Source: an uncultured Actinomycetes bacterium
GTDB lineage: Bacteria; Actinomycetota; Thermoleophilia; RBG-16-64-13
Direction of reading: 5' to 3'
NCBI GenBank assembly: GCA_963706025.1
Contig: CAVPLM010000011.1
Coordinates: 1 to 64,000, forward strand
DNA: 64,000 nt
Shown: in pieces, positions 14,579 through 58,999 of the stretch
How the letters are laid out: the number at the start of each line of letters is the position of its first letter
Position numbering within the stretch: position 1 is the first letter of the stretch
Notes under the pieces: model-generated
Databases searched by the model: none
Told to the model about the DNA's origin: nothing
Seen by the model: the letters and a program-made list of their open reading frames with translations, nothing else
Made by a program: the position numbers and the translations under genes

Positions 14579-14705
14579 TTAGCTCACGTAGCTGATGGGT
14601 CCATTTCGCAGGACCTCGGGCACGTGATACCTGTAGAACCACCACTCCGCGGCCGGCAGATCGTTCATGTCCGAGAAGATGGTGAAGGATGATGGTCTCG
14701 ATCAT
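14579..14705 (-). pseudogene. Truncated N-terminal fragment of a bacterial chalcone-isomerase/EthD-like protein
   Basis: With one indel corrected it reads MIETIILTIFSDMNDLPAAEWWFYRYHVPEVLRNGPISYVS*; the W-x-Y-x-x-H-x-P pattern resembles the Eubacterium ramulus CHI N-terminus as I recall it; GGAG RBS upstream. Confidence 0.45.
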
Positions 14706-14738
14706 GAGACCCCGTCTCCCGGATCCATGCTGCGCTGG

Positions 14739-16866: not shown

Positions 16867-16896
16867 GACGTGCGGCGCCTCCGACGGGAGGGTCGG

Positions 16897-20827: not shown

Positions 20828-22673
20828 CTACTCAGGCCGCACGCCGATGTGGAAGGGGATGCTCATGACCACCACCCACGGCACGCCCAGGAGCGCCGCC
20901 TTGAGTCGGAGCGCGTTCTGATTGTGGAGGACGTTCTCCCACCAATGCTCGACCACGAACTCCGGGATGATCACAGTGACCGTGTGATCTGCGCTCGGAT
21001 GGAGGGAGCGGATGTAGTCCACGGCCGGCCTGGTGAACTCCCGATAGGGCGAGTCGACCACCACGAGAGGGATGTCGATGCCCATCTCTGCCCAGGTCGT
21101 TTGCAGGGCGCAGCACCTGTTCCGGGTCGCCGCTGATGGTGGCGGCATGGAAGTCGTCAGGGGAGAGCCCGCGGCCCAGAGCCAGAGAGCGAGCCGTCAG
21201 TTCGTTGACCTTGGAGACGAAGAGCACCACAGTGGTCCTTGGGCGGGAGACGGCCACTCTCCCCAGACGCTCCAGCTGGTCGGGATCCTGGGGCTCCAGA
21301 AAACCCGCCACTTGTGCATAGTGACGCCGCACCACATAGAAGAGGGCAACAAGGGCGGGAACAGCAGCAACGACGATCCAGGCGCCCTCCATGAACTTGG
21401 TCGACAGGATCACCACGGCCACCACGCCGGTGAGAACAGCCCCCAGGGTGTTCATGGCGGCGCGACGCTGCCACCCGCCCGTTTTGAGCCTGCGCCAGTG
21501 CACCACCATGCCCGCCTGCGAAAGCGTGAAGCCGATGAATACCCCCAACGCATAGAAAGGGATCATGCGGTGGGTGTCGGCCTTGAAGATCACGATCAGC
21601 GCGATCGCAGCGACCGTCAGGCCGATGATGCCGTTGGAAAACACCAGACGGTCGCCCCGGTTCATGAACTGGCGAGGCATCAGTCCGTCCCGAGCCAAGA
21701 CCGAGGACAGGCGGGGGAAGCCCGCGTAGCAGGTGTTGGCCCCCAGAACGAGGATGGCCATCGTGGCTATCTGCAGGGCGTAGTAGAAGAACCCTCCACT
21801 ACCGTAGACCGCCCGAGCCACCTGGCTGAGCACCGTGTCCCCGGCCTCAGGGACGATGTGGATGACTTGGGAGATGCCTGTGACGCCGATGAGCAGGAAC
21901 CCGAGCACCGCCGCCATGATGCCCAGGGTCGCGGCGGCGTTCTTGCTCTCGGGAGGCTTGAAGTCGGGCACGGCGTTGGAGATGGCCTCCGTACCCGTCA
22001 TGGCGGCGCAGCCCCCGGCGAATGCCCGCAGGATCAGGAAGAGGGTGAGTTCCTGAACTCCCGGGATACTGTCGCCGCCCTCGACAGCCTGAAGGTCCCC
22101 CATCAGCCAGCGGATTGCCCCCACTATCACCAGCCCCCCGCACAGCACCATGAAGACGTACGTGGGGACTGCGAAGAGACGCCCGGATTCCCTCACCCCG
22201 CGGAGATTGGCGAGAGCCACCAGGATCACCAGGCCGACGGCGATTATCACCCGGTACTCGAACAGGACCGGGAAGGCGGAAGTGATGGCGGCCACGCCCG
22301 AGGCCACGCTGACAGCCACGGTGGCCACGTAGCCCACCATCAGGGACGCGGCAGCGACCAGGCCGGGGGCCAACCCGAGGTTCTCCCGGCTTACGACGTA
22401 TGACCCGCCGCCGTTGGGGTATGCGTGCACCGTCTGCTGATACGACAGAGCCACGATGGCCAGAAGGACGGCGACCGCCATGGCGACAGGTAGCGAGTAC
22501 GACAGGGCAGCGGAGCCGGCCAGGATCAGGGCGAGAAGGATCTCTTCGGTCGCATAGGCCGTCGAGGAGATGGCGTCGGAGGAGAAGACGGGCAGAGCGA
22601 ACTTCTTGGGCAGCCGCTCGTGCATCTCCTCGGCAGTGGCGATGGGCCGGCCCAGCAGGGCCCGCTTGATCAT
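20828..22673 (-). CDS. APC-family KimA-like K+ transporter, copy 1
   Basis: FSSDAISSTAYATEEI, YPNGGGSYVVSRENLG, TGTEAISN, SPYREFTRP, WWENVLHNQNALRLK. Confidence 0.9.
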
Positions 22674-22721
22674 CCCAAAGGTGTTCGTAAGCGCACCGGT
22701 CTTTCCCGTCGGGTGTCCGCC

Positions 22722-22730
22722 ATTGTATCA
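22722..22730 (-). promoter_or_regulatory. Extended -10 element (TGaTACAAT) for KimA-like copy 1
   Basis: Minus-strand tgatacaat about 50 nt upstream of the ATG at 22673. Confidence 0.5.
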
Positions 22731-22767
22731 ACGGACCCGGCGGTCGCGAGACCGTCTCAGCTCGTGG

Positions 22768-24630
22768 CTACCACGAGTCGAGTTCGCTCTCGTCCTCTTC
22801 GCCGATGTGGAAGGGGATGCTGATGACGACCACCCAGGGCACCCCCAGAAGCGCCGCCTTCAGCCGGAGGGCGTTCTGGTTGTGCAGGAAGTTCTCCCAC
22901 CAGTGCTCGACCACGAACTCCGGGATGATCACGGTCACCGTATGGCTCCGGCTCGGGCGGAGGGACCGGACGTATTCCACGGCCGGCCGAGTGAACTCCC
23001 GATAGGGCGAGTCGACCACCACGAGAGGGACGTCGATCTCCATCTCCGCCCAGGTCCGCTGCAGAGCGAGCACGCGCTCCGGGTCGCTGGCGATGGTGAC
23101 GGCATGGAAGTCGTCGGGCGAGAGCCCTCGGCCCAGGGCCAGAGAGCGGGCCGTCAGTTCGTTGACCTGGGAGACGAAGAGGACCACGGTCGTCCTTGGC
23201 CGGGAGATGGCCACTCTGCCCAGGCGCTCCAGTTGTTCCGGGTTCTGGGGCTCCAAGAAGCGCGCCACTCGAGGTAGTGGCGGCGCACCGTGTAGAAGAC
23301 GACCACCAGTACGGCCACGGCGATCAGCACGATGTACGCCCCGTGGATGAACTTGGTCACCAGGACCACGACGGTGACCACGCCGGTGAGAAGCGCCCCG
23401 AAACCGTTCATGGCCGCCCGATGCCGCCAACCCGGCGTGCGCAGGCGGAACCAGCGCACCACCATGCCCGATTGGGACAGCGTGAAGCTGGTGAACACTC
23501 CCACCGCGTAGAGCGGGATGAGACTGTGGACTTCGCGCCCGGAAGATCACCAGGACCACGATGGCCGCGACGGTCAGCCCGATGATGCCGTTGGAGAAGA
23601 CCAGCTTGTCGCCCCGGTTCATGAACTGGCGGGGCATCAGACCGTCGCGGGCCAGCACCGAAGCCAGCCGAGGGAAGCCGGTGAAGCTGGTGTTGGCGGC
23701 CAGGACCAGGATGGCCATGGTGGCTATCTGCAGAGCGTAGTAGAAGAAGCCCCCCCCGTAGACGGCGTGCCCGATCTCTCCCAGGACGGTGTCCCGTCCT
23801 GGGGCACGATGTGCAGCACCTGTGCCAAGCCGGTGACCCCGAGCAGCAGAAAGGCCAGGATGGCAGCCATGACGCCCAGAGTGATGGAGGCGTTCTTGCT
23901 CTCCGGCGGCTTGAAGGCAGGCACGGCGTTCGAGATGGCCTCCGTTCCGGTCATGGCCGAGCACCCACCGGAGAAGGCCCGCAGGACGATCCACAGCAGG
24001 GCCAGCCCCTGGAGAGTGCTGCCGCCGTCAGTCGGCGATTGCGGCTCGAGGTCTCCCATGACCCAGCGGATGAACCCCACGACCACGAGGCCGCCGCATA
24101 GCAGGACGAAGAGGTAGGTGGGGATGGCGAAGAAGCGACCCGACTCCCGCACCCCGCGCAGGTTGGCGAGGGCGACCAGGATGATGAGGCCGACGCAGAT
24201 GTAGACCCGCCGGCTGCTCGAGGGCCGGAAAGGCGGCGATGATGGCCGCGACCCCGGAGGCCACGCTCACGGCCACCGTCATGACGTAGTCCACCATCAG
24301 CGACCCGGCGGCGACCATGCCCGGCAGCAGACCCAGGTTCTCCCGGCTGACCACGTAGGAGCCGCCCCCGTTCGGGTACGCGTGGACCGTCTGCTGGTAG
24401 GAGAGGGCGACGAAGACCAACAGGACCACGACCGCGATCGCGATGTAGATGGAGAGGGTGACCGCGGCGACGCCGGCCAGGACCAGGGCGAGCAGGATCT
24501 CCTCGGTCGCGTATGCGGTCGACGAGATGGCGTCCGACGCGAAGACGGGCAGAGCGAACTTCTTGGGCAGCCGCTCCTGCATCTCCTCGGCGGTGGCGAT
24601 CGGCCTGCCCAGCAAAGCCCGCTTCATCAT
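22768..24630 (-). CDS. APC-family KimA-like K+ transporter, copy 2 (frameshifted)
   Basis: Same motifs as copy 1 (FASDAISSTAYATEEI, WWENFLHNQNALRLK); tandem paralogue. Confidence 0.9.
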
Positions 24631-24737
24631 TGAGGGAGCACCCACGCTCTTCTCCAGGTCGTTTTCGTACGAAGACGCCGTTGACGAACGGCTCCATTTA
24701 TCCGCTGTTGCGGCGCGCTAGTCAAGAGACGGAAGGA

Positions 24738-24799: not shown

Positions 24800-27315
<2,516 letters not shown>

Positions 27316-27979: not shown

Positions 27980-29253
27980 TCACTGGACAATGCCCGGAGA
28001 GCAGCCTTTCATGAGTAGGTGGCCCGGCGCCACGGCGAAGCCCGTGGCCCGGGCTTCAGTCTCAGTGAAGGCCTGCGCGCCGTTGGCCTCGAACCCCGGT
28101 CCCCACATGAGGAAGGGCACCGGCTCGGCCACGTGGGTCTTGATCTCGAGAGGGGTGGGATGGTCGGGCAGCACGAGCAGACTGACCTCCTCGGTTGCAT
28201 GATCGGAGCGGTCCCCCGCGACGGCATCATCGGAGCGGTCGCCCGCGACTGTCGGCGACGGCCCCTCGCGTAGGGCGAGCACGCGCGGCACCATCAACCG
28301 GTCGACCTCGCTCGATCGCCTGCACCTTGCCCAGCGACGTCGCCTGCGTGTGACGCTTCGTCGGGTGCTTCCACGTGCACGAACACCACGTCGTGATCGT
28401 CCAGGGCGCTCAGGGCCCCGGTCATCTGGCCGGCGAAGTCGTTGTCGAGGCCGTCGGTGACCCCCGGGAGGGAAAGGAAGTCCATCCCGGTCTGCAGAGC
28501 CAGGCCGCGTAACAGATCGACCGCCGAGGTGAGGGCCGCCCTCTTTCCGTCGTAGGCTCGGTCGAAAGTGGGCATCGCCTCCGGCCTCATCCCCGGCCAG
28601 AACAGCCAGATCTGGGTCGCCGGCAGTTGCCCTCGGGCGACGCGGGCCTCATTCACCGGATGACCGGCCAGGATGGCTCTGGAGCGCTCCATCAGCGACT
28701 CGGTCAGGCCGGCGCCGGGCCCCACGGGCCCGCGGCCGGCCACCGCCTGGTCGGTGATGTCGTGAGGCGGCGTAAAGGTCGTGGCGAGTAGTTCCGCACC
28801 ATCTCGGACCGTGAGGATGTGCCGGAACCCCACCCCATGGTGGAACTCGAGGCGTTCGTCGCCCAAGCCCGCCTGCAGGGCCGCCACCAACTCCGCTGCT
28901 TCGGCCGACGAGATGTTCCCGGCCGAGTAACTGGTCATGATCCCGGCAGAGATGTTCACCAGGTTGCAGCGCATCGCCACCTGGCCCGGGTCCAGATCGA
29001 TCCCCATGGCCATGGCCTCGATGGGACCTCTTCCCGCGTAGTACCGGCTGGGATCGAACCCCAGGACGCTCATGCAGGCCACCGCGCTCGAGGCCTCCAT
29101 ACCCTCGCGGAACGTTGTGAGCCATGCCGACGGTGCCCTCTCGCGCCAGTCGGTCGAGATTGGGATGTGGGCAGCCTCCAGCGAGGTGCGACCCCCGAGA
29201 GCGGCCACCGGCCAGCCGGACGCCCCATCGATTATCAGCACCACGTACTTCAC
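27980..29253 (-). CDS. apgM: Cofactor-independent phosphoglycerate mutase, ApgM type (frameshifted)
   Basis: VKYVVLIIDGASG, GRGPIEA, FVHVEAPDEASHAGD, LPDHPTP...HVAEPVPF. Confidence 0.85.
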
Positions 29254-29398
29254 CTGTAGACCGTCCCCACCGCCCGCCGGCCGCGGGGCCTCGCACGGCC
29301 CCGGCCCGAACGGGCTCAAGCTTCCCCACTGCCTGAACGCGCTCCATTATATGCGCTAATGTTCAGCGGAGAGACACCCAGGGAGGAGGCGATCGCCC

Positions 29399-30001
29399 GT
29401 GAGCACAGACGCAACTCGGCCGACCCCGGAACACCGGGGGGGTGCAGAGAAACTGCTCCAGGAGGCGGCAGTCGCTTACCTGGGTCTGGTGGAACGCCCG
29501 CCCGACGGTGAGACGGCAGGCAGCCCGTATGTCGTGCCGGTCAATTTCGCCTTCTGCGGGAGCTTGCCCTCTGACGAAGCGAGGGCCCCAAGCGGCACCA
29601 TGGGCGCTACGCTCGGTGATGCGACCGAGAGACCGCCGGCTGCCGAGACCGACCGCCCTGCGGCCCGTCTCTTGTTCCACACGGGGATCGGAAGGAAGAC
29701 CCGCGCCCTGGCGGAGAATCCGCGCGTCTGTCTCGCCGTCACCGGTGACGTATCCTTTTCCGCCGGCTCCAAGCCCTGCGAGGACGGTTTCGACTACCGG
29801 TCCGTCCTGGTTTGGGGAAGGGCCAGACTCCTCGAGAGCCGGGAGGATCGAGTGGCGGCGTTGCGCAAGATCGTCGCCAAGTATGATCCCCAGGCTGCCG
29901 ACCGGGCGTTCGACGAGCAGGACTTCGAGCAGACGCAGGTCTATGAGGTGACGATCGATACCCTCAGCTACAAGGAGCAGCCTCGGCACCGCTCCGGCTG
30001 A
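29399..30001 (+). CDS. Pyridoxamine 5'-phosphate oxidase / NimA-like flavin-binding protein
   Basis: PYVVPVNF, LFHTGIGRKTRALAENPRVC, YRSVLVWGRA. Confidence 0.85.
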   Translation: MSTDATRPTPEHRGGAEKLLQEAAVAYLGLVERPPDGETAGSPYVVPVNFAFCGSLPSDEARAPSGTMGATLGDATERPPAAETDRPAARLLFHTGIGRKTRALAENPRVCLAVTGDVSFSAGSKPCEDGFDYRSVLVWGRARLLESREDRVAALRKIVAKYDPQAADRAFDEQDFEQTQVYEVTIDTLSYKEQPRHRSG

Positions 30002-30057
30002 TTCGCCGGCTTTCCGGTTGATTCCGGAACCGGGGCGCGTACCGCGCCCGCGGACCG

Positions 30058-31253
30058 CTACCTCTGGGAGCCGAAGTACTTCTCCCCCACCTCGCGGAAC
30101 GCGGGCAGCGCCCCGTCCACGACCTCCGGAGCTACACAGTAGGCCAGACGGAAGTGGCCCGCCAGGCCAAAACCGCTCCCCGGTACCACCAGCACCAGGT
30201 GCTGCTGCATCTCCCGGCAGAAGGCCACATCGTCCTCGATCGGCGAGCGCGGGAAGAGGTAGAAAGCGCCCTTCGGGCTTGACCACATGGAACCCAGCCG
30301 CGGTGAGCGCTTCGCACAAGACGTCGCGGTTGCGCTGATAGGGCGTCACGTCCACACCCACCCCCTGCAGCCGGGCGACCGCCCGCTGCATGAGTGCCGG
30401 CGCGTTCACGAACCCCAGGATACGGTTCGCCAGGACCAGCCCCTCCATCAGCGCCGCTACCCCCGGGATGGATGGGTTGGCCGCGAGGTAGCCGATCCGC
30501 TCTCCGGCCAGCGACAGCTCTTTGGAGTAGCTCGAGGCGATGATGGTGTTCGCGTACGCGGCCATGACCGGGGGTACCCGGTGACCGTCGTACACTATCC
30601 GCCGGTACGGCTCGTCGGAGACCAGGTAGATGATCCGCGCGTACTGCCGGCACTTCCGCCGCAAGAGATCCCCCACCGCCTCCAACGATGCCTCGGTGAT
30701 AGACGCGGCCCGTAGGGTTGTGAGGGGAGTTGATGAGCACCGCCCGGGTCTTGCGACCGATGGCGTCCTCGATGGCGTCGATGTCCAGCTCGAAATCCGG
30801 GCCACTTGCCACCGGCTTCAGCACTCCCCCGTGATTGTCGACGTAGAACCCGTACTCCACGAAGTAGGGCCGCGGGACGACGACTTCATCCCCGGGATCG
30901 AGAACGGCCTTGAAGATGCAGTTGAGGGCCCCTCCGGCGCCGCAGGTCATCACGACGTTCCGCGCCGGTACCCGCACGCCCTGGTCTTGGGAGAGGTACT
31001 CGGCCACCGCCTCGCACGCTTCAGGATAGCCGGCGTTGGGCATGTAGCCGTGAAGGCCGGGGGTCGGATCGCGCACCAGCTCTTCGATCACCCGTTGGAA
31101 CTCCGCAGGTGGCTCCAGGTTGGGGTTGCCGATGCTGAAGTCGAAGACCCTGTCACGTCCGTGGATCTCGGAAAGCCGCGCTCCTTCTTCGAACATCTGC
31201 CTGATCCAAGAAGAGCGCTCTGAGAATCCCGCGATCTTCTTCGCTACGGGCAT
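30058..31253 (-). CDS. Class I PLP-dependent (aspartate) aminotransferase (frameshifted)
   Basis: SSWIRQMFEEG, DFSIGNP, INSPHNPTG, SDEPY, SYSKELSLAGERIGY. Confidence 0.92.
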
Positions 31254-31286: not shown

Positions 31287-31517
31287 TCATCCGCCGGAGA
31301 CGGCGGGAAACAGGCCGAGCCGGTCGTGATCGCTGAGCAAGGAGTCGAGCTCCGCGCCATGACCGTTGATCATGACTATGGCCACGTCGCCCACGCGGAT
31401 CTCCGCTCCGACAACCACGTCCCTGACCGTGAGACCGGGTCTAGCCTCTACCTCGAACTCGGACGGACCTGGATCGGACGCCCTAGCGAGAGCGGCATAC
31501 AGTCGAACATCGATCAT
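31287..31517 (-). CDS. MoaD/ThiS-family sulfur carrier
   Basis: 76 aa, VRLYAAL start and C-terminal FPAVSGG. Confidence 0.9.
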   Translation of the reverse strand: MIDVRLYAALARASDPGPSEFEVEARPGLTVRDVVVGAEIRVGDVAIVMINGHGAELDSLLSDHDRLGLFPAVSGG

Positions 31518-31714
31518 CCTCGGTCACCTCTCGGGGATTCCCGCCTGGACCATTGCCCGAAGCGGCGGTGGCCCGTCGCCGGCGCGTGAACGTCGCCCGG
31601 CCGACAGTCTAGCATGCGGCCCGCGTGCTGCCCCGCTGAGCCCGAGCATGGCAGTTGCTCCCTCGCCGACCGCATCACAGGCTGGGGAGCGGACGAAGGC
31701 CGTCTATCCCAGGG

Positions 31715-32542
31715 CTAACCGATCGACCCCCCCTGCTCCCGGTACAGCTGGGGAAGGAACCCGGCCAGCCGCGAGTACTCGTGGACGTCGTGTTCGTAGA
31801 GACCGAAACAGGCCTCCTCGGGAATACGGACACCGGGCGCCAACATCAGCACCGGCTTCTTGTCCACGATCTGGTATCCCATCCAGAAGCGGGTACGGAA
31901 GTCGACTCCCCCGGTCATATCTCGCACGAAGTGGAGAAGGGCCACATACTGCGGCGGTTCATCCGGGCTCGCCGGGGGAACGACCACGTTGCCGCAGACC
32001 GTGGTGGCCACGTTCGGGCTGTGGTACCTGCTCATGTCGAAGCCAAAGTCCTCGGGGCTCACGAAGTCGATCATCACCCGGGCCACGCCGGAACCGATGC
32101 TCTCGATGGCGATGTGGCCCGGTCCAGGGTTCTGCAGTTTACGTTCCATGGGAACGCTGGGATCGGAGAGCATCCGGCGATCTTCGTCCTTGATATCGCT
32201 GCCCATGTGGTCGCGGGGGAACCAGATCTTGTAGCGCAGATCCTCACTGATGAACCAGGCGAACCACCACCTGATCATCTCGGCGGTGACTCCGGGCATC
32301 TTGTGATTCAGGGCCACGAAGCCGGAACCGTCCGGCATGACGCAGTACCCGGTCTCGGTCGGCAGAGTACCGGGGTTCAGCATGTCGTTCAGCCGCTGGA
32401 TGGGCAGGGCCAGCCCGGGGTCGACCGCCCGGGGATGGTCGATCAACTCCATCATCTCCGGCGGCCGGGGGAACTCCAGGTAGTAGTACTTGGAGTAGGG
32501 CTTGGCCCTCTCTTCCGCACTCAGTTCGGCGAGTCCTGCCAC
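31715..32542 (-). CDS. Phloretin hydrolase / DAPG hydrolase (PhlG family) C-C hydrolase
   Basis: MPGVTAEMIRWWFAW, LRYKIWFPRDH, RTRFWMG, EHDVHEY (candidate metal ligands); 275 aa. Confidence 0.88.
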   Translation of the reverse strand: MAGLAELSAEERAKPYSKYYYLEFPRPPEMMELIDHPRAVDPGLALPIQRLNDMLNPGTLPTETGYCVMPDGSGFVALNHKMPGVTAEMIRWWFAWFISEDLRYKIWFPRDHMGSDIKDEDRRMLSDPSVPMERKLQNPGPGHIAIESIGSGVARVMIDFVSPEDFGFDMSRYHSPNVATTVCGNVVVPPASPDEPPQYVALLHFVRDMTGGVDFRTRFWMGYQIVDKKPVLMLAPGVRIPEEACFGLYEHDVHEYSRLAGFLPQLYREQGGSIG

Positions 32543-32594
32543 GGGGTCACCTCCTTGGGAACGCGGCCTGCCACGCTGGTCCGCGTGACCTTCG

Positions 32595-33401
32595 CTAGTT
32601 GTGATTCAGCCCGCCGTCCACCAGAAGCGTCTGACCGGTCATGAAGTCACTGTCGGCGGAAGCCAGGAAGAACGCGGGTCCGGCCAGGTCGTCCGCCTGC
32701 TCGTTGCGCTCGGGCAGGCACTGACCCAGACGCGTCCTCTCCCAATGGTCCGTCACGCCTGCAGCCTGCTCTCTGTTCGCCTCCGTGAGGGTGAAACCGG
32801 GAGCGAGCGCGTTGACCCTGATCCCCTCCGGACCGAGTTCCCGCGCCAGAGCCCGAGTGAAGCCGATGATCCCTCCCTTGCTGGAGACGTAGTGGATGAA
32901 TCCGGCCACGCCTTCCCAGAAGGTGGAGGAGGTGAGGTTGATGATCTTGCCGTAATGCTGAGGCTTCATGTACGGATAGACGGCGCGGGCGCAGAACCAC
33001 ATTCCCCGCAGGTTCACGTCCAGGATGTAGTCCCAATCCTCCACTTTCCATTCGTAGAAGCGTTGCCAGGGCTGCTTGGACATGACCCCGCGAAAAGCGG
33101 CGGCGTTGTTGACGAGGATGTCGATCCTGCCCCCGTAGGTGTCGGCCAGCAGCTTGGCCGCCGCCTCGCACTGGTCGAGGTGGGTGATGTCACAGGTGAT
33201 GGGGATGGCGTCCCCTCCGGCCGCCTTGATCTCGTCGGCCACCCACACGGCGCTCTCGCCGTCTATGTCGAGCACGCCGACCTTGGCCCCCTCCTTGCCG
33301 TACCGGAGAGCGATGGAGCGACCGATGCTGTTGGTGCCGCCCCCACCCGTGATCAGTGCCACTTTGCCCTGCAGACGTTGTCCTTCGACTTCCGTGCTCA
33401 T
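32595..33401 (-). CDS. Short-chain dehydrogenase/reductase
   Basis: ITGGGGTNSIG, NNAA, YVSSKGG, NALAPG. Confidence 0.95.
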   Translation of the reverse strand: MSTEVEGQRLQGKVALITGGGGTNSIGRSIALRYGKEGAKVGVLDIDGESAVWVADEIKAAGGDAIPITCDITHLDQCEAAAKLLADTYGGRIDILVNNAAAFRGVMSKQPWQRFYEWKVEDWDYILDVNLRGMWFCARAVYPYMKPQHYGKIINLTSSTFWEGVAGFIHYVSSKGGIIGFTRALARELGPEGIRVNALAPGFTLTEANREQAAGVTDHWERTRLGQCLPERNEQADDLAGPAFFLASADSDFMTGQTLLVDGGLNHN

Positions 33402-33478
33402 CGTGCTCTCCTTCTTCTCAGGCCTTGCTTTGCTGAATCTCCGCGTGGTCGGCCGTGAATCAGTCCGCGGTGGATCGC

Positions 33479-35443
33479 CTAGATGTCCAGGGCGGCTTCG
33501 AAGCCCTCGTGTATGGCGTTGAAGAGGATCCGGGGCGCCCTGCAGTCGCCTACCACGTGTACTTCCGGAGCCGAATCCTTCAGCGCCTCGACTACGTCGC
33601 TTCGGGACCGCAGGTTGGGCGCGACTACCACGGCATCGGCGGGCAGTTCCTGCTCCTGGCCGCCGGCGTTGCGGACGGCGACCTTCCCTTCCAGCACCCG
33701 CTCCAAGACCACGCCTTTCCGCACCCTGATGCCGTGTTGCTCAAGCATGTCTTCGAGGGCCATCGCATCCACGAAGTTGACCGTCTGGTCTTGCGCCGAG
33801 CCCCCCGGGATCTCGATGATGGCCACCTGCTTGCCCTGACGGGCGAGATGGAGCGCCGCTTCCTGCCCCATGCCTCCATCGCCTACGACCACCACGCGGT
33901 CGCCGGGCACCTCCCGGCCACACATCACGTCGCCGGCCCAGAGGACGTTCGGGCCCCTGATACCCGGCACGTCCGGCCAGGCCGGCTCCGCGCCTACGGC
34001 CACGACCACCTCATCGGGCGCCTCCGCCCCCACCAGCTCGGCCGTCGCCTCGGTACCCAGTCTGACCTTGACGCTCGACTTCTCCATCTGTCGCAGCAGG
34101 TACTCGAGGAATCGTTTCCAATCGTCCTTGAAGGCCGGTCCAGACGAGGCCCAGAGATTGCCACCCAGCCGGTCTTCCTTCTCGAACAGTGTCACCTCGT
34201 GACCCCGGGAGGAGGCGATGAGTGCCGCCTCTATCCCGGCCGGGCCACCTCCGACCACCACTACCTTCTTCTTGGCGGCTATCGGAGGCAGGCAGCGGTA
34301 GTAGTCCTCCCGCACAGCCCAGGGATTGACGGCGCAACGCACGGGCAGGCTGTGCGCCCCGCGGACCAGACACGTGTTGCAGCGGATGCAGGGCACGGCT
34401 TCCTCTTTGCGACCGCGGAAGGTCTTCTTGGGCAGAGCCGGATCGGCGATGAGCGCCCGGCAGAGGGCCACGAAGTCCACCTTGCCGGCGGCCACCCAGT
34501 CGCCGGCCTCGTCCAGATCGACTATGGCCCCCACCACTCCGACCGGTACGGTCACGGCCTTCTTGATCTCTGCCGCCCTATCGACGTTCTCGCCGTGGGG
34601 CAGATAGACCGAAGGGTGCGTGTAAGGGTAGGTGCGGGGTTCGGCGATCATTCCGGCCGAGACGTGGAGACAGTCCACCTTGTCCTGCATGAGGAGCGCG
34701 TACTCAACCGCGTCGGCTATCTCCAGCCCCCCGGGGACCAGGTCGCTGGCGCTCATTCTCCATTCGATGGGAAAATCGGGACCGCATCTCTCTCTGATCG
34801 CGTCGATGACTCGGATGCCGAAGCGGACCCGATTCTCCAGGCTGCCCCCGTACTCGTCGGTACGCTTGTTGACGGCCGGGGAAACGAACTGCGAGATCAG
34901 CCAACCATGACCGGCGTGGATCATGACCATGTCGAAGCCGGCCTTCTGGGCGCGGAAAGCGGCCTCCGCATAATGGTCGATGACCTCGTCGATCATCGCC
35001 AAGCTCATCTCTTCGACCACCTGCTCGCCCCGGCGCCTGTCCTCGGTGAACACGCCCACCATGGCCGACGGTCCGATAGGGTTCCTACCCCCGTTGAGCT
35101 GGCTCACCGCCTGACGGCCGCCGTGATTGAGCTGGATGGAGGCCAAGGCCTCCTGACTCTTGATCGCTTCTACCACCGAGGTGAGGGCGGGGATGTAGAA
35201 GTCGCTGCCCAGGTTGAGCTGCGTGGGTTGGGTGATGGCCCTATCGGAATCGATGGCAGTCTCCAGCACGGTGATGATGCCGGCGCCGCCCTTGGCCTGG
35301 GCCCGGTAGAACTCCACCAGCTCCCGGGACACCGACTGGTCGGCATGAGCGATGCACGTGAGTGTCGGAGCGGCTTCGATGCGGTTCTTAGCCGTCAGCG
35401 AGCCGATCCTGATCGGTTCGGTCAAGGCTTCCCAGGATGCCAT
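33479..35443 (-). CDS. Old-yellow-enzyme + [4Fe-4S] + FAD/NAD oxidoreductase (2,4-dienoyl-CoA/BaiCD/Fcr-like)
   Basis: HAGHGWLISQF, NKRTDEYGGSLENR, CIRCNTC...CAVNP, VVGGGPAG; 654 aa. Confidence 0.93.
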   Translation of the reverse strand: MASWEALTEPIRIGSLTAKNRIEAAPTLTCIAHADQSVSRELVEFYRAQAKGGAGIITVLETAIDSDRAITQPTQLNLGSDFYIPALTSVVEAIKSQEALASIQLNHGGRQAVSQLNGGRNPIGPSAMVGVFTEDRRRGEQVVEEMSLAMIDEVIDHYAEAAFRAQKAGFDMVMIHAGHGWLISQFVSPAVNKRTDEYGGSLENRVRFGIRVIDAIRERCGPDFPIEWRMSASDLVPGGLEIADAVEYALLMQDKVDCLHVSAGMIAEPRTYPYTHPSVYLPHGENVDRAAEIKKAVTVPVGVVGAIVDLDEAGDWVAAGKVDFVALCRALIADPALPKKTFRGRKEEAVPCIRCNTCLVRGAHSLPVRCAVNPWAVREDYYRCLPPIAAKKKVVVVGGGPAGIEAALIASSRGHEVTLFEKEDRLGGNLWASSGPAFKDDWKRFLEYLLRQMEKSSVKVRLGTEATAELVGAEAPDEVVVAVGAEPAWPDVPGIRGPNVLWAGDVMCGREVPGDRVVVVGDGGMGQEAALHLARQGKQVAIIEIPGGSAQDQTVNFVDAMALEDMLEQHGIRVRKGVVLERVLEGKVAVRNAGGQEQELPADAVVVAPNLRSRSDVVEALKDSAPEVHVVGDCRAPRILFNAIHEGFEAALDI

Positions 35444-35464
35444 CTCGATCCCCCTTCTCGCGCC

Positions 35465-36133
35465 TTAGTGTCGCCAGCGACAGGTGTCGCTCAGGTCGCA
35501 GAACTCGCAGGGCGTCCGCACCTCGGTCGACGTGTAGTCCGGGCCGATCCCCACCATGAGCGAAGCCGACTTCTGCGGTACCAGCATACCGGTGCTCGTT
35601 ACCGTCACCCCGATCGCGTCGGTGTCGAGCAGGCTGCAGAGCAGCTTCTGTTCCTCGATGCTCCATCCGTTGAGTTGACCGGGAGCAAGTTCCGCCCCCA
35701 CGCCCCAGCTTCTCCGAGCGGCCTCTTCTTCGGCCATCCGGTGCGCCCGTTGCATGAGCGATCCCACCGCGAAGACCCCCGCCTCCCCCAGCACGTAGCT
35801 CTCGAGCGCCCTGCCTGCAGCTCCCAACTCGCGAGCCTGCTCCTCCAGCCGGAGACCGATGGTGACCACGCTGACGAGAGCTTCTTGGGCCGGCGCCAAC
35901 AAGTTGGCATGCCTTCCCAGGGTGAAGAGCATCCCGCCCACCCGCACCCGCCCATCGTCGACCGTATCCACGGTGAGCCACTCGTAGGCGATCGCGGGCA
36001 CGATCAACCCGCGCGCCTCCTCGAGGGCCCAGCGGGCCACCTCCCTGACTTCTGGGCGACGGAACGCCTCCCCTTGGGCTTCAAGGAATCGGTCGAACTC
36101 GAGATCGCACTCTGAGTCGCTGAGAACGGTCAT
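35465..36133 (-). CDS. Stand-alone methionine synthase reactivation-domain-like protein
   Basis: VVTIGLRLE, LAPGQLNGW, IGVTVTSTGMLVPQKSAS, C-terminal CEFCDLSDTCRWR. Confidence 0.8.
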   Translation of the reverse strand: MTVLSDSECDLEFDRFLEAQGEAFRRPEVREVARWALEEARGLIVPAIAYEWLTVDTVDDGRVRVGGMLFTLGRHANLLAPAQEALVSVVTIGLRLEEQARELGAAGRALESYVLGEAGVFAVGSLMQRAHRMAEEEAARRSWGVGAELAPGQLNGWSIEEQKLLCSLLDTDAIGVTVTSTGMLVPQKSASLMVGIGPDYTSTEVRTPCEFCDLSDTCRWRH

Positions 36134-36178
36134 TCTCGCAGCTCAGATCTTCGGCTCGCCGTCACTATCCACCGCCCA

Positions 36179-37327
36179 CTATCCGACGACCACTCCGAGG
36201 TTGGCGGTCACTCGTCGGGCTCCCGGTCGTCGACAACGCACACGGACCCCTTCGCCCTTCGTGCCTGTAACAAAGCATCTGTTGTCCGAGCGGCAGGAGG
36301 AGGGCCTGCGGTCTCCCGATCTCCAGCGGTTCACCAGGTCCGGTTCCCGTATGAGCGGCCGGCACAGGGAGATGTAGTCGGCCACCCCACCGGCGACCAG
36401 CCTCTCGGCCGTCTCGAAAGTGCGGATCCCCCCCACCAGCATCAGGGGCACAGGGATCGTCTGCTTGTATCGGACGGCGGCCGCCTCGTAGTAGGCTTCC
36501 GGCTCTTCACGCGCAGCGTCGCCCGGGCGCATGGCCGTTCTGTCGCCCGAGAGGAAGGTACCCCCACTCAATTCGATCGCGTCGATGCCGGCTTCGGCAA
36601 GCATGGCGGCGGTCTCGAGCATGTGGTCGACGATGAGACCTCCGGGGAGGAAATCCTCCGAGTTCATCTTGATCAGGACCGGAAACCCGGGGCCCACCGC
36701 TTCCCGCACCGCCTCGACGACCTCGATCGGCAGCCGCGCCCGGTTCCGGACGCTGCCGCCGTAGGCATCGGTCCTCTTGTTGAAGAAGGGAGAGAGGAAT
36801 TGGCTCAGCAGATACCCATGCGCCGCGTGGATCTGCACCGCGTCGAAGCCGGTGTCGCGCGCCCGGGCGGCAGCCTGAGCGAACGCCTTGGTGACGGCTG
36901 CCAGATCGCTCGCGTCCATCTCTCGCCCGACCTGACCCTCCTCTGTCTCGAGCACCGACGGACCCAGGGCCGGCGGCCCTCCAGGAGGGCTCAAGCCTCG
37001 AAGTCCTGCGTGCGCGATCTGCAGGGCGATGACGCCGCCGGCCGCGTGCACCGCGGCCGCCAGGTCCGCGAGCCCGGGGTTCATCTCCTCCGAGTCCGCG
37101 GCAAGCTGCCATGGTCCCGCCCGGCCTTCGGCGCTCACGTACGCGTGACCGCTGATGATCAGACCCACGCCACCCCGGGCAAGAGCGCACGACATCTCGT
37201 TCAGCGCCGGGGTGGAGGAACCATCCGGAGCGGCCAGTCCTTCCCAGGTCGCCGAGCGCACGAATCGATTGGGAACGACCATCCCTCTGATGGTCGTCGC
37301 CTCGAAGAGGCCGGGTGACTCCTTCAC
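36179..37327 (-). CDS. NADH:flavin oxidoreductase (OYE family, single domain)
   Basis: NRFVRSATWEG, HAAHGYLLSQFLSP, NKRTDAYGGS, CRSDNRC; GTG start overlaps the upstream stop. Confidence 0.92.
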   Translation of the reverse strand: MKESPGLFEATTIRGMVVPNRFVRSATWEGLAAPDGSSTPALNEMSCALARGGVGLIISGHAYVSAEGRAGPWQLAADSEEMNPGLADLAAAVHAAGGVIALQIAHAGLRGLSPPGGPPALGPSVLETEEGQVGREMDASDLAAVTKAFAQAAARARDTGFDAVQIHAAHGYLLSQFLSPFFNKRTDAYGGSVRNRARLPIEVVEAVREAVGPGFPVLIKMNSEDFLPGGLIVDHMLETAAMLAEAGIDAIELSGGTFLSGDRTAMRPGDAAREEPEAYYEAAAVRYKQTIPVPLMLVGGIRTFETAERLVAGGVADYISLCRPLIREPDLVNRWRSGDRRPSSCRSDNRCFVTGTKGEGVRVRCRRPGARRVTANLGVVVG

Positions 37328-38010
37328 CTCACGAACACCGTGAACTCGTCGACCGGTACGCGCGTCCGCGGGAAGCGGTTGATCGGCGCTCCCCACTCGG
37401 GGTATCCGAGGGCGATCGCTATGACGAAGCTCTTGTCCTCGGTGCCCGGGATCACCTTCCTCAGCAGGTCGGGGTAGCGGACCAACGAGGCCGCGATGCA
37501 GGTCCCCAGACCGCGGGCGTGAGCTGCGAGGGCTATGGATTGGGCGAACAGTCCGGCGTCGAAGCAGCCATACGGAACCCCGATGCCCTTGGGCATGGCC
37601 AAGACCAGGAGTAGGGGCGCCCCGTAGACCTCAGCCGCCACGACCATGGGGGGAAGTGGCGGAACCTGCAGCGGTACACCCATCCTTCCCTCCTCGGCGG
37701 CGATGAAGGATGCCCTGGTCTGGAACAGATCGTCCTGCCTTGCCTGCAGAAGAGGGGGCAGCTCCGGGCTGCCGCCCAGGTCGGGCGCCGGCGGGGCCTC
37801 GGACAGGGCGTATTCGCGGAGGTCGGCTCTGAACTGCCGGAACGGCTCGCCCGAGAGCACGTAGACATAGGTGGATTGGGTATTCGTTGCCGAAGGCGCC
37901 CACCTGGCCTCGGTCAGTATCTCCCGCACGAGGTCATCGGACACCGGCTGAGGCAGATACCTCCGGATGGCCCGCCTCTCCGTGAGGGCTGTGTTGGTCG
38001 TCGCGCTCAT
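37324..38010 (-). CDS. Nitroreductase family protein
   Basis: RRAIRRY, WAPSATNTQ, FDAGLFAQSIALAAHARGLGTC, IALGYP. Confidence 0.93.
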   Translation of the reverse strand: MSATTNTALTERRAIRRYLPQPVSDDLVREILTEARWAPSATNTQSTYVYVLSGEPFRQFRADLREYALSEAPPAPDLGGSPELPPLLQARQDDLFQTRASFIAAEEGRMGVPLQVPPLPPMVVAAEVYGAPLLLVLAMPKGIGVPYGCFDAGLFAQSIALAAHARGLGTCIAASLVRYPDLLRKVIPGTEDKSFVIAIALGYPEWGAPINRFPRTRVPVDEFTVFVR

Positions 38011-38272
38011 TCTGTCTTACCTCCCCTTCGAACTCCTACTCGGGTCTGAACCCAGAGTCACATGTTACAGGAACTGCCTGGCAAGACCGGCAAGATGGAC
38101 TTCCAGTGGGGGCGCCCGACCGGCGCGGAGGACCGCGTCCAGCCGGCCGGGAAGGCGGTCTCCGGGATCTGGTCTGAAGCGGCGCTCTGGTTCCGGCGGG
38201 GGCTCTTACGCCCGCCGGTGCGCGGCAAGGGCCGGCCGGCGATCGGCTGGGCGACTTCGTCCGAGGACCGGC

Positions 38273-38281
38273 TGGTATACT
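38273..38281 (+). promoter_or_regulatory. Extended -10 element (TGgTATACT)
   Basis: About 60 nt upstream of the ATG at 38344, which has an AGGAGG RBS. Confidence 0.5.
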
Positions 38282-38343
38282 CTCGACAACCATCACCGGC
38301 ATTTCCCGGCTGCGCCCGTACGCCCGGGAAGGAGGCGCGAACC

Positions 38344-39601
38344 ATGGCCTTTTCTGATGACGTCTTCCCTCCGGACGACCAATGCGAGATCTGCGGAGCC
38401 CGGTTGGACGACGAGATCGTGATCCAGGAGTTCGCCGACGGCAGCCTGGCCCGCTTGTGCAACGAATGCGCGGCTGGTGCCGCTCTCGGGACGGAAGAGC
38501 ATCAGGGACATGATCCGCTGCAGCCGGGCTTTGAGAGCCGATCTCTCGCCGATTCGGACCCTCTGGAAAGGACGAGAGAGCTTCTTACACCGGTGGTCGA
38601 CCTCATCGGGCTGCAGAGAGAGATGCAGGCCGCGCTGGAGCGGCTGGCTGCGTCGCTCGAGACCTTCGCTGCCGGCGTCCTCACCGAGAACCTGGACAAG
38701 ACGGCCACTGTGGAGGACCGGGTTCAGAGCCTGGAACGGGAACTGGAACTGACCCGCCTCCGCCTCCAGGAGGCGGAGGCGCTGCTGGGCGCGGCCGCCA
38801 TCATCCCGGCGAGCGCCGAAGCGGGTGCGGTGACGACCGGCCCCGGCCCCGCCGCGGGCGCGGCGCTGCCGGCCGCGGCGACCGCCGGGACCGTCGGAGC
38901 CGCCCAGGCCGGCGAAGCCGCCGCCGGAGCCCGTCGCACCTGGGATCCTGCCAGCCGCCGGTGCCGGAACCGGAGGTGGTCCCGCCGCCACTCCTCGCGG
39001 AGGGTGCGGAGTCGACGTGGCCCGCCACCCGTCCCAGCCCGCCACCTCGTCCCAGCCCGCCACCGGCGCCGCCGCGGCTGCGGCGGCGGCCATCGTCGAC
39101 GCCACCCAAGCCCCTGCAGCAGCCCAAGAAGAGGCGCCGCGGCACGGCTTCCGGATCGAAGAGGTGCAGGCGGCCCAACGCTACTTCAACGAGAGCCCCT
39201 TCACCGGCAAGACCCGGGACGTGAGCCGCAGCCTAGGAAAGCCGCGCGCCAACCTCACCCGCGCCGCGGGCACCGAGCCCCGGGCCTTCATCACTATCGC
39301 CTGGGACATCGTCTGGTATCAGTATCTTGTGGATATGCGCCTCGATATCCCCAGCGACCAGCGTGTCGTCCTGTATCGGGAGGGCATGGACCTGGACGAA
39401 TTGGCCCACTACTTCAAGGAAAAGAACGCCACCGCCGACGACAACGGGCGGCTCGACGCCTCCGAGTTGGAGGTCAAGCTGCTCAGCGACCCCTCCGCTC
39501 TCATCACCGAGATGACGGTCGACGAGGAGAGGGCCCTGGAGGACGCCACCGAGGAGATCTGGGACCAACACATAAGCCCCGAGTTCAAGTGGGATGACTG
39601 A
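38344..39601 (+). CDS. Hypothetical protein: N-terminal CxxC..CxxC, coiled coil, Ala/Pro linker, globular C-terminal domain (frameshifted)
   Basis: CEICG...CNEC; heptad region EDRVQSLERELELTRLRLQEAE; C-terminal ITIAWDIVWYQYLVD...EFKWDD. Confidence 0.7.
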
Positions 39602-57190: not shown

Positions 57191-57219
57191 TTGACATGGT
57201 TATCTTACTCATGTAATAT
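57191..57219 (+). promoter_or_regulatory. Promoter TTGACA-17-TAATAT overlapped by the inverted repeat ACATG-N11-CATGT (candidate Rrf2 operator)
   Basis: ttgacatggttatcttactcatgtaatat, about 40 bp upstream of the rrf2 start on the opposite strand. Confidence 0.6.
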
Positions 57220-57937: not shown

Positions 57938-58035
57938 ATCCGGGCGGTACAAGTACGCACGGCGTGAACCAGACTGGTCGCGCCACTTGCCGACGAGGCT
58001 CCCGCTAGACCCGGGAGCCTCGTCTCTTCGGACCC

Positions 58036-58999
58036 CTACCGGGCCGGCTTGGAGTACGACAGGTAGCTCTTGTACTTGGCCACCTTCGTTGGGCAGTTCG
58101 TCCACGTTTGCCGGCCACACCAGGGACCTGTTCGCCAGTTCTTCCAGGTGCTCGAACTTGCCCGAGAGGAGCATATGGGAGTGGACCTTTTCTTCTTCCG
58201 GGACCTCGAACCTGACCTTGCCGTCGACGACGTTCAAGGTCCCCCTCACGCCGCAGATGCCGCAGATGGTGGGATAGCTGTCCTCGGCGTTGCGGATCTC
58301 CAACAGTTTGGAGTGACAGATGGGGCACAGGCCCGGCTGGCCGATGTACTCCGCTTCTTCCAGGGGCTTCTTCAGCGTCTCGGCCACGTGCCGGCCCGAC
58401 CTGTGGGCCCGCTCCAAGAGATCGTCCCTTAGGGCGACCACCTTCGGTAGTCCGACCCAGTTGACCACGATCTTGTCCACCACCTCGATCTGCATGGAGA
58501 GGGTGAACAGGTGCATCAGGGGTAGAGCCAGCGTGTCCCACTCGCTCCCCCCCACGGCTATGAGGGAGGCAGCCCGGGGTTTGAAGGCCCGTTCGTCCGG
58601 GCCCTCACCGGTGGTGATGCCCCGCTCGGCCCGCATCTTCTTGGCGGCCATTCGGAAGGCCTGGTCGTGCGAGGGGCCCATGCGGTCGTTCAGGCATTTC
58701 AGCTGGCCACTGGGAGTCTTCTCGTAGATGGGAGAGCCGAGGATGAGCCCGTCGCACTCCATGATCTTCTCGTCTATGAAGGGCAGGTCGTCGTTCTTGA
58801 TGGTGCAGCGGCCCGGGCCGCACTTCTCGAACAGGTCGATCACGCAGGAGTTGCAGCCGGTACAGGGCTTGATGTTGAGATCGTGCAGGTGCACGAGTTC
58901 GACCTCGGCTCCCGCCTCCTCCGCGCCCATCAGCGCCTCTTTGACGAGGATCTCGGTGTTGCTCAGCCGCCTACCACAGGAAATGCCCAGTACCTTCAT
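58036..58999 (-). CDS. Flavodoxin-like reductase with a C-terminal Zn ribbon; flavone reductase (FLR)-like
   Basis: EALMGA, CTGCNSC, DRMGPSHD, VGGSEW, CPICHS, ICGICG, LSGKFEH; one frameshift near the 3' end. Confidence 0.85.

Follow-up and report, generated by a model that had tools for sequence, protein, structure and literature searches.

In this study, we analysed a 64,000-nucleotide (nt) stretch of DNA, hereafter the window, from an uncultured Actinomycetes bacterium (contig CAVPLM010000011.1), with a focus on six minus-strand open reading frames (ORFs) that were confirmed between positions 31715 and 38010. In the direction of reading these encode a nitroreductase-family flavoprotein, an Old Yellow Enzyme (OYE)-type oxidoreductase, a protein resembling the MetH activation domain, a FadH/enoate-reductase-type flavoenzyme (referred to here as the reductase), a short-chain dehydrogenase/reductase (SDR) and a hydrolase of the PhlG/Phy family (Table 1). 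An initial annotation had taken these six tightly packed, co-oriented genes for a single module that converts flavanones via dihydrochalcones to phloroglucinol. The ORFs are real and each belongs to the family that had been named, by Pfam match or, for the MetH-like protein, by fold; however, synteny in related genomes shows that the string was put together stepwise around a probable housekeeping gene and is not one conserved pathway operon, and we read it as an evolutionary mosaic of accessory genes for polyphenol catabolism. An Fcr/Phy-like cleavage of a flavanone or flavanonol to phloroglucinol is nevertheless the best single reading, and we put its chance at somewhat less than even.

The genes of the string are separated, in order of increasing coordinate, by gaps of 52, 77, 21 and 45 nt, and the nitroreductase and OYE frames overlap by up to 73 nt, depending on which OYE start is used. 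Between 31715 and 38010, the single terminator-like site found on the minus strand falls within the coding sequence of PhlG, and a scan for sigma-70 promoters was uninformative, with one site found and 1.0 expected. The co-oriented run extends beyond 31715 as far as 27980 through a ThiS-like ORF, an aminotransferase and a PGM-like metalloenzyme.

Table 1. Features of the six-gene string, the unit downstream of it and the FLR-like gene (all on the minus strand; aa, amino acids)
Feature	Position	Strand	Size	Basis or remark
Nitroreductase-family flavoprotein	37324..38010	-	228 aa	PF00881, E 3.8e-23; first gene of the string
OYE-type FMN oxidoreductase	36179..37396	-	up to 405 aa	PF00724 (Oxidored_FMN), E 3.7e-57
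Stand-alone MetH activation (S-adenosylmethionine-binding/reactivation) domain-like protein	35465..36133	-	222 aa	Profile and fold match
FadH/enoate-reductase-type flavoenzyme, candidate Fcr-like reductase	33479..35443	-	654 aa	Oxidored_FMN and Pyr_redox_2
Classical SDR	32595..33401	-	268 aa	Pfam match; conserved partner of the reductase
PhlG/Phy-family Zn-dependent C-C hydrolase (predicted)	31715..32542	-	275 aa	PF18089, E 4.3e-70; closes the upstream unit
Conserved GCATGCTAGACT element upstream of the ThiS-like ORF	31606..31617	-		Aligns with G003; distal border of the PhlG insertion
ThiS/MoaD-like small protein	31287..31517	-	76 aa	PF02597, E 8.6e-08; ends in GG; first gene of the conserved downstream unit
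Pyridoxal-phosphate-dependent aminotransferase	29363..31253	-		Split over at least two frames; NF005305 positions 2-189 in one ORF, 188-333 in another
PGM-like metalloenzyme (PhosphMutase/Metalloenzyme domains)	27980..29319	-		Split in two ORFs
FLR-like FMN_red protein	58103..58999	-	first ~300 aa of a 596-aa open frame (57209-58999)	PF03358; 20 kb from the string

The order of events was deduced from a comparison of the window proteins with 15 loci, all of them in genomes that belong to the same genus and family. In two of these (L109 and L113) a PCC-domain gene is followed by the MetH-like, aminotransferase and PGM-like genes, and the nitroreductase, OYE, SDR, PhlG and any close (at least 72% identical) reductase are absent from the place. 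One further locus (L117) carries this backbone with an OYE, and L105, from the same genus, has it with both nitroreductase and OYE. In L103 (genome G003, same genus) the nitroreductase, OYE and MetH-like genes are followed by the reductase (88% identical), the SDR (87%) and then the aminotransferase, with no PhlG gene; in L107, likewise from the genus, the nitroreductase is followed by a 59-aa piece of an OYE and by the MetH-like gene, and the contig breaks off after the start of the reductase. A backbone of PCC-domain, MetH-like, ThiS-like, aminotransferase and PGM-like genes is therefore conserved in this sediment and soil Thermoleophilia-like family; the genus added the nitroreductase and OYE upstream of the MetH-like gene, and a two-gene module of reductase and SDR was placed downstream of it. 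Finally, in the window species only, a PhlG gene with its own ribosome-binding site was inserted behind the SDR. When the DNA of the window and L103 is aligned, a stretch of about 1 kb that comprises the PhlG gene, its AAGGAGG ribosome-binding site and flanking DNA stands out as a clean insertion, bordered by the SDR stop codon on one side and by the conserved block GCATGCTAGACT on the other. The alignment resumes at this block and continues beyond it; the element is possibly the promoter of the downstream, ThiS-like unit. This stepwise assembly contradicts the idea that the six genes form one conserved module.

The MetH-like gene is the conserved anchor of the locus. Its product has no Pfam match at E 0.001, and Met_synt_B12 (PF02965) is found at E 0.044 with 13.7 bits, below the cut-off of 25. 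However, a profile built from nine homologues matches the stand-alone activation-domain protein 1j6r (E 2.5e-4) over nearly its full length, and the AlphaFold model (pLDDT 88.6) matches the same structure in Foldseek (E 2.8e-10, TM 0.75), the range over 1j6r, 8sse, 6bm5 and 1msk being E 2.8e-10 to 2.2e-6. By these matches to MetH activation domains the label 'MetH-reactivation-like' was right. Membership of the module is a different matter, as the gene occurs at the locus where there are no flavoenzyme genes at all (L109 and L113), and it is probably a housekeeping gene. It is the only Met_synt_B12-like match in the assembly, also below the cut-off, and two homocysteine-methyltransferase domains lie elsewhere; because of this, a housekeeping reactivation role as for TM0269 of Thermotoga maritima (1j6r) is the simplest reading. 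The two proteins share the fold and are of similar length, and both are likely to be trans-acting reactivation modules, but they are only 18% identical, and the window protein stays below the Pfam cut-off and has an additional conserved C-terminal CxxCx5C motif. Nine B12-binding_2 matches were seen on contigs C3, C5 and C17, most of them in ORFs of about 200-230 aa, as for small corrinoid proteins of the methyltransferase (O-demethylase) type, and the MetH-like protein with its CxxCx5C motif could in principle serve such systems.

The gene order is not an assembly artefact, since short-read contigs from three studies bridge the junctions from aminotransferase through ThiS-like ORF to PhlG (X2 record 17), from PhlG through SDR to reductase (X4 record 24) and between SDR and reductase (X2 record 18); one of the bridging runs, the best match, may be the sample from which the window was assembled. 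The window is part of contig C11 in a 30-contig, 3.66-Mb assembly (G000) that is 92% complete and 7% contaminated. Compared with short-read contigs of other runs it shows single-base indels at 29107, 29161, 30268 and 31556, the first two within the PGM-like gene and the third within the aminotransferase, where contigs from both X1 and X2 have one base fewer. Because of these indels, the frameshifts in the window genes look like assembly errors and not like pseudogenes. The H+-pyrophosphatase and amino-acid permease genes are likewise split over two or three ORFs (24800-26952 and 20832-24645). Two small contigs on the PhlG gene, each with one mismatch, and others on the SDR were found in a sediment metatranscriptome run; this is only a hint of expression of these two genes, as DNA carry-over is possible, and stretches without RNA contigs in run X19 do not count as silent.

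The conserved unit of the locus is the pair formed by the reductase and the SDR. Based on its domain matches (PF00724, residues 7-347; PF07992, residues 392-609), its 4Fe-4S motif (C352-x2-C355-x2-C358-x11-C370) and two GxGxxG dinucleotide-binding motifs (GGGPAG at 398 and GDGGMG at 521), the reductase consists of an FMN-binding TIM barrel, a 4Fe-4S cluster and FAD and NAD(P)H domains. This is the architecture of the FadH/enoate-reductase class and bears out what had been predicted for the gene. It has been reported that flavonoid enoate reductase belongs to the enoate-reductase (EnoR) class, defined as FAD- and [4Fe-4S]-containing (Yang 2021; PMC7862272), and an enoate-reductase nature was earlier suggested for Fcr (Goris 2021; PMC8398226). 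The closest solved relatives are 2-naphthoyl-CoA reductase (6qkg, E 5e-94) and Escherichia coli FadH (1ps9, E 3.2e-68). No NCBIfam equivalog cut-off is reached, the scores being 430.7 bits for BaiCD (cut-off 825), 462.8 for mycofactocin OYE_2 (793) and 409 for long bilirubin reductase (750), and none of the 120 homologues listed, all at least 50% identical, is characterised. The SDR has FabG-type reductases, (S)-1-phenylethanol dehydrogenase and BbsD as closest solved relatives, which would fit a step on a side-chain alcohol or ketone.

The positional orthologue of the reductase in G003 is 88% identical, and homologues of the two genes are adjacent in eight further places in relatives, which fall into one group of 66-88% identity (G002 C173, G003 C14, G004 C82, G015 C142 and G020 C3) and one of 55-57% (G003 C2, G011 C2 and G015 C211). 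Metagenome contigs were also sampled with the reductase alone, so that they are unbiased for PhlG; among the 11 close loci obtained (at least 68% identity, with at least about 0.9 kb downstream) the SDR directly follows the reductase in eight. We reject the proposal that this SDR is a phloroglucinol reductase (PGR), because a phloroglucinol cluster with its own SDR is present on contig C17. The window SDR is 33% identical to the C17 protein, and the SDR in PGR context at locus L022 matches the C17 SDR with 173 bits (40% identity) and the window SDR with 92.8 bits (32%), so that by cluster context and by similarity to the L022 protein the C17 SDR is the better PGR candidate.

Directly behind this pair lies the hydrolase, which is intact and, as had been annotated, a PhlG-family protein ending the string. 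It matches DAPG_hydrolase (PF18089; DAPG, 2,4-diacetylphloroglucinol) with 236.2 bits (cut-off 22.7) over profile positions 4-223 of 223, and its matches in the PDB are phloretin hydrolase 5xe5 (E 3.7e-35) and PhlG 3hwp (E 1.1e-31). It falls short of the DAPG-hydrolase equivalog NF047887, with 106.6 bits against a cut-off of 600. H112, E147, H251 and E255 are invariant in all 108 family sequences compared and align with the ligands in 3hwp, provided that an inferred 8-residue tag offset in the deposited chain is allowed for; the zinc ligands of PhlG, which we take to be H129, E160, H270 and E274, are thus all kept. The window protein has a short NPGPG insertion before the conserved H143, and a phenylalanine (F97) in its WWFxWH motif at a position that is histidine in 102 of the 108 sequences and another residue in six, among them again phenylalanine in the protein of locus L011. 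In a tree of these 108 rows (quick search, SH-aLRT support only) the window hydrolase forms a pair with the L011 protein (73% identical), on a long branch; the pair falls within a well-supported Actinomycetota clade of 18 rows that is separate from the clade of the clostridia. Among 1.84 billion cluster representatives, 896 belong to the family at E <=0.001, and the next representative after the hydrolase's own cluster (50% identity) is 45% identical. Its named relatives are metagenome-assembled genomes (MAGs) of Thermoleophilia, Gaiellales or uncultured Actinomycetota, and more distant ones come from Holophaga foetida, Sporomusa, Moorellaceae, Desulfobacterales, several Clostridium species and Rubrivivax gelatinosus. 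Near-identical DNA was found in sediment and freshwater metagenome runs of several studies, which together with these relatives agrees with the description of the host as an actinobacterium of a non-gut type. A gut member of the Eggerthellaceae, which GC content, genome sizes and the many OYE-type enzymes had suggested as host, was rejected on these grounds.

The genome around the string appears to be that of a polyphenol specialist. On contig C17 (20985-31700, L118), genes for BKACE/TAL, SDR/PGR, 3HCDH/TfD and cyclase/DPGC precede those for the large and the small subunit of a transhydroxylase and another large-subunit-like gene, and we regard this as a complete candidate phloroglucinol pathway cluster with pyrogallol-transhydroxylase-like subunits. 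Transhydroxylase-like molybdoenzymes are very largely expanded for a genome of 3.7 Mb: 25 matches to the pyrogallol-hydroxytransferase large-subunit-like (AhtL-like) domain PF21423 were found, most in open frames of 840-930 aa (for example C17:25477-, C19:83331-86919 and C14:99819-, and many on C3 and C5). The assembly further holds seven BKACE and six cyclase matches, and three intact PhlG-family genes plus fragments. Two of the intact genes are tandem paralogues (C3:315786-318415, L120), 42% and 44% identical to the window copy, with a MerR/TetR regulator, an EthD-domain protein, a LysR regulator and an aldehyde:ferredoxin oxidoreductase nearby. Triple tandem arrays of PhlG genes were observed in Thermoleophilia MAGs, with three intact copies each in L047, L050, L053, L056, L061 and L064 and with the third copy in fragments in L041.

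In addition, the window itself contains a gene resembling flavone reductase (FLR), whose 596-aa frame probably has a frameshift or read-through after about residue 300. The product is 36% identical over residues 1-292 to the FLR-like protein of L066 and 38% over 300 aa to that of L088, where the gene lies beside those for chalcone isomerase (CHI) and PhlG. Two strong FLR-like matches (the window on C11, and C3) and a weak one (E 1.1e-5) were found in the assembly. CHI (PF18232) was not found in this 92%-complete assembly; the same search was silent in all 14 control genomes, so absence is not implied, and CHI has been reported to be dispensable (PMC11868195). 

Elsewhere, reductase and hydrolase genes do occur together. 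A FadH-like gene lies within about 4 kb of a PhlG-family gene in 13 of 80 loci sampled with PhlG, and five annotated Bacillota loci are flavonoid clusters in which the two are accompanied by CHI, FLR-like or phloroglucinol-pathway genes among them. L066 (Clostridium sp. CF012) has chalcone isomerase (PF18232), LysR, PhlG, FadH-like, DUF1097 and an FLR-like FMN_red gene of 316 aa; in L076, PhlG, FadH-like and FLR-like genes are consecutive, an order that matches the flr-fcr-phy arrangement described for Clostridium butyricum (PMC11868195). L022 reads SDR (PGR), cyclase (DPGC), thiolase, BKACE (TAL), LysR, PhlG and FadH-like; L014 has PhlG, FLR-like, FadH-like and SnoaL-like genes, and L017 a LysR gene and two FadH-like genes followed by PhlG. 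An actinobacterial counterpart is found in an uncultured Actinomycetes MAG (L088, CAWFCN010000005.1, 2069-14359), a compact flavonoid cluster of genes for a corrinoid protein, a URO-D-type methyltransferase, FLR-like protein, chalcone isomerase, a fumarate-reductase-like flavoprotein, PhlG, ferredoxin, a second flavoprotein, a MerR/TetR regulator, a FadH-like reductase and an FMN reductase. Within the window's own genus, locus L104 of G001 has a reductase copy (78-80% identical) and, at a distance of 3 kb, a PhlG-family gene that reads in three frames, the annotated genes between and beside them all being on the same strand. This is a second, independent and differently arranged juxtaposition of the two genes.

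According to the reading that we prefer, the reductase, with NAD(P)H, FAD, 4Fe-4S and FMN, would reduce or reductively open a flavanone- or flavanonol-type enone, and its product would, as for Fcr, be an acylphloroglucinol of the dihydrochalcone type. The SDR may modify a hydroxyl or keto group nearby, in either the substrate or the product. The zinc hydrolase would then cut the aryl-carbonyl C-C bond to give phloroglucinol and an arylpropionate or aryl-lactate, and the phloroglucinol would be consumed through the separate PGR-DPGC-TfD-TAL cluster on C17, with the MetH-like protein probably reactivating a cobalamin enzyme outside this chemistry. Of the flavanone-to-phloroglucinol operon initially proposed, the pairing of reductase and hydrolase, the phloroglucinol pathway on C17 and the FLR-like gene speak for the idea; its other parts, the six-gene module and the SDR as PGR, did not hold up.

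Several observations weigh against this flavonoid-cleaving role. In the reductase-seeded sampling a PhlG gene stands beside the reductase in one of the 11 close loci, and that locus (L127) is of the same species (96-99% identical); in the flanks of the 63 distant (35-43%) reductase-seeded loci no PhlG gene was found. A small reductase tree (40 rows, rooted on E. coli FadH) had placed the window clade as sister to PhlG-adjacent reductases (SH-aLRT 89), but in a wide tree (97 rows, FastTree) that included reductase-seeded metagenome sequences, only 10 of the 34 rows in the sister clade are PhlG-adjacent. With wider sampling showing a mixed sister clade, we dropped 'sister to Fcr-like' as a specific link, and neither the trees nor the reductase-seeded sampling ties the reductase clade specifically to PhlG. 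Both trees were built from hits without stops that aligned over about 600 residues or more, and they do not include a characterised Fcr, daidzein reductase, BaiCD or cinnamate reductase. The Bacillota reductases beside PhlG are themselves only predicted, and the candidate reductase of C. butyricum is 32% identical to Fcr of Eubacterium ramulus (PMC11868195). Neighbours of close reductase copies, which include a GMC oxidoreductase, TetR, an S15/CocE-NonD-type hydrolase with a second SDR, ABC binding proteins, pyrogallol-transhydroxylase-like Mo enzymes with SnoaL-like proteins, UbiD and URO-D-type methyltransferases, point to phenolic catabolism and are not flavonoid-specific. On the side of the hydrolase, the long branch and F97 suggest that the substrate may differ from phloretin, and the closest relative, at L011, has no FadH-like neighbour.

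In view of these points, the strongest competing explanation, which we consider rather unlikely but by no means negligible, is that the reductase and SDR have a different phenolic enone or enoate as their substrate, such as hydroxycinnamates from chlorogenate or feruloyl esters, in the manner of the clostridial 2-enoate/cinnamate reductases, and that PhlG shares no substrate with them and hydrolyses acylphloroglucinols from elsewhere. Cinnamate reductases presumably belong to the same enzyme class as the window reductase. The ten close homologues of 11 that lack a PhlG neighbour are as this explanation would have it, and so are the recurrent neighbours, namely the S15/CocE-NonD-type hydrolase, second SDR, GMC oxidoreductase, TetR, ABC binding proteins, UbiD and URO-D methyltransferase, and the fact that the two further intact tandem PhlG paralogues on C3 lie away from close reductase copies. 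Against it stand the two independent juxtapositions of reductase and PhlG in one genus (the window and L104), the precise placement of the PhlG insertion, which has a ribosome-binding site of its own, at the 3' end of the unit, as seen in short-read contigs of three studies, and the repeated co-occurrence of PhlG with FadH-like genes in flavonoid clusters from three phyla.

It is also conceivable, although unlikely, that the reductase and SDR constitute a Thermoleophilia- or Actinomycetota-specific module for a flavan-3-ol or flavanonol step that has no assigned enzyme, for example on the route linking catechin and taxifolin, which has been described as carried out 'by unknown enzymes' (ISME J 2025; PMC12203004), and that the divergent PhlG is specialised for an alpha-hydroxy-dihydrochalcone-type product rather than phloretin. 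If this were true, the species would show how one inserted gene can complete a pathway in nature.

A more improbable explanation is that the pair works like daidzein reductase (DZNR) and dihydrodaidzein reductase (DHDR) of equol formers, first reducing the C=C bond in an (iso)flavone or chromone and then the C4 ketone to give reduced flavans without ring cleavage. The strict pairing of a FadH-type ene-reductase with an SDR does parallel the DZNR-DHDR logic, if, as we assume, DZNR is of the FadH-type ene-reductase family and DHDR of the SDR family, and an FAD_binding_2 protein two genes upstream of the reductase copy in L104, past a GMC-like gene, recalls the flavoprotein of equol clusters. However, neither a racemase nor a tetrahydrodaidzein-reductase-like gene is present in the window string, and the PhlG insertion is not accounted for. 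The least probable explanation, that the hydrolase is of the DAPG or monoacetylphloroglucinol type and detoxifies microbial acylphloroglucinol antibiotics beside general xenobiotic reductases, has in its favour the name of the Pfam family, the nearly equal PDB match to PhlG and the fact that nitroreductases and OYEs are typical xenobiotic reductases, but it is hard to reconcile with the low NF047887 score, with the setting in a polyphenol degrader that has a phloroglucinol pathway and with the near-identical DNA from sediment and freshwater metagenomes, DAPG-producing pseudomonads being typical of the rhizosphere and not of sediment.

The two genes at the head of the string belong to the layer added within the genus. 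The nitroreductase is found at the same position in three genomes of the genus (G001-G003, 84-89% identity), and the OYE stands upstream of the MetH-like gene in G001, G003 and G019. With a match to positions 2-343 of TIGR03997 (199.5 bits, below the cut-off), the OYE looks like the N-terminal domain of a FadH-type enzyme; its Pfam match begins at residue 30, its true start is probably later than the listed GTG, and its C-terminal tail looks out of frame. Neither gene was accepted as an FLR homologue, because FLR has a WrbA-like flavodoxin fold (PMC7862272) and because a distinct FLR-like gene is present in the window. We also obtained no evidence for orthology with the nitroreductase upstream of the Phy cluster of C. 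intestinale, the identity being 27-30% over short stretches only. In three Thermoleophilia or Actinomycetota loci (L026, L015 and L025), the distance between a PhlG-family gene and a homologue of the window nitroreductase (50-64% identity) is 3-8 kb. In L026 (13216-14745), corrinoid and methyltransferase genes precede a 50% identical nitroreductase homologue, which is directly followed by a 64% identical homologue of the window SDR, 4.4 kb from the PhlG gene.

Divergent from the nitroreductase and upstream of it lies a plus-strand gene (38062-39601) that matches no family; it has an N-terminal CxxC...CxxC zinc-ribbon-like stretch, a frame change near 39017 and several indels compared with X1 contigs. 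Further away, a 924-aa protein (3430-6204, plus strand) with two BcrAD_BadFG ATPase stretches and DUF2229 resembles the activase of 2-hydroxyacyl-CoA dehydratase or benzoyl-CoA reductase, which fits an anaerobic lifestyle. On the minus strand (14702-17749), a 1015-aa frame combines a formiminotransferase N-terminal domain with a complete urocanase. Amidohydrolase and aromatic-amino-acid-lyase fragments lie beside it (hut cluster), and the frame may reflect either a real fusion or indel errors.

The degradation of flavonoids and tannins without oxygen matters for how much carbon peat and sediments store and how much methane they give off, as discussed in the 'enzyme latch' debate (PMC8084988; PMC10470551; PMC12203004). 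For this process, the locus described here offers concrete candidate genes in an uncultured actinobacterial lineage, and it shows how catabolic capacity can be assembled by stepwise insertion beside a housekeeping gene. It also carries two warnings for annotation, namely that an SDR beside a Phy-like gene should not be named phloroglucinol reductase and that tight co-orientation alone does not make a pathway operon. A literature search for Thermoleophilia together with phloroglucinol returned nothing relevant by title and abstract, and no link between phloretin hydrolase and Eggerthellaceae was found in PMC8398226.

The best comparison for the window is with the Fcr-Phy system of E. ramulus and the predicted flr-fcr-phy genes of C. 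butyricum. The latter are consecutive and code for predicted enzymes; naringenin, eriodictyol, taxifolin and phloretin are all converted by this organism (PMC11868195). In these systems, as in the window, an enoate-reductase-class gene of the FMN/4Fe-4S/FAD type lies near a gene for a PhlG/Phy-family zinc hydrolase, and a phloroglucinol pathway and an FLR-like gene are present elsewhere in the window genome, as in these systems. In contrast to them, the window has an SDR between reductase and hydrolase, no adjacent LysR gene and no CHI that was found, and its genes are embedded in a housekeeping locus. The window reductase is 39-47% identical to the PhlG-adjacent reductases of Bacillota, and the hydrolase is 42-47% identical to the clostridial clade but sits in a separate Actinomycetota clade. 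With phloretin hydrolase of Mycobacteroides abscessus (5xe5/5xey) and PhlG of Pseudomonas fluorescens (3hwp) it shares the fold family over the full length and the four aligned metal ligands, but identity, judged by eye from the alignment, is about 30-35%, and the phenylalanine in WWFxWH, the NPGPG insertion and the score below the PhlG equivalog cut-off set it apart. The anaerobic phloroglucinol pathway of Clostridium scatologenes comprises PGR, DPGC, TfD and TAL (Zhou 2023; PMC10470551), and the same four families are clustered on C17, beside pyrogallol-transhydroxylase-like subunits; this cluster lies outside the window, and the window SDR is a different SDR.

The same pathway has been inferred for organisms of anoxic soils. 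CHI, FCR and PHY have been reported in Holophaga and Sporomusales MAGs from anoxic soil (McGivern 2021; PMC8084988), and transcripts of FCR, PHY and/or CHI have been assigned to 13 MAGs, the actinobacterial genera Chersky-299 and RBG-16-64-13 being named as expressing such genes (ISME J 2025; PMC12203004). The available parts of both papers give gene calls or expression for these soil and peat MAGs and not the arrangement seen in the window. Among our PhlG loci are MAGs labelled CTSoil_007 and CTSoil_081, and CTSoil_7 and CTSoil_81 are labels in PMC8084988; similarly, L023 bears the isolate label Chersky_299, and P0009, which is 81% identical to the window reductase, is named RBG_16_64_13 by its source, labels that resemble the genus names in PMC12203004. 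The type of pathway has already been described in anoxic soils, and what the window adds to these known systems is a further member with a new arrangement of the genes.

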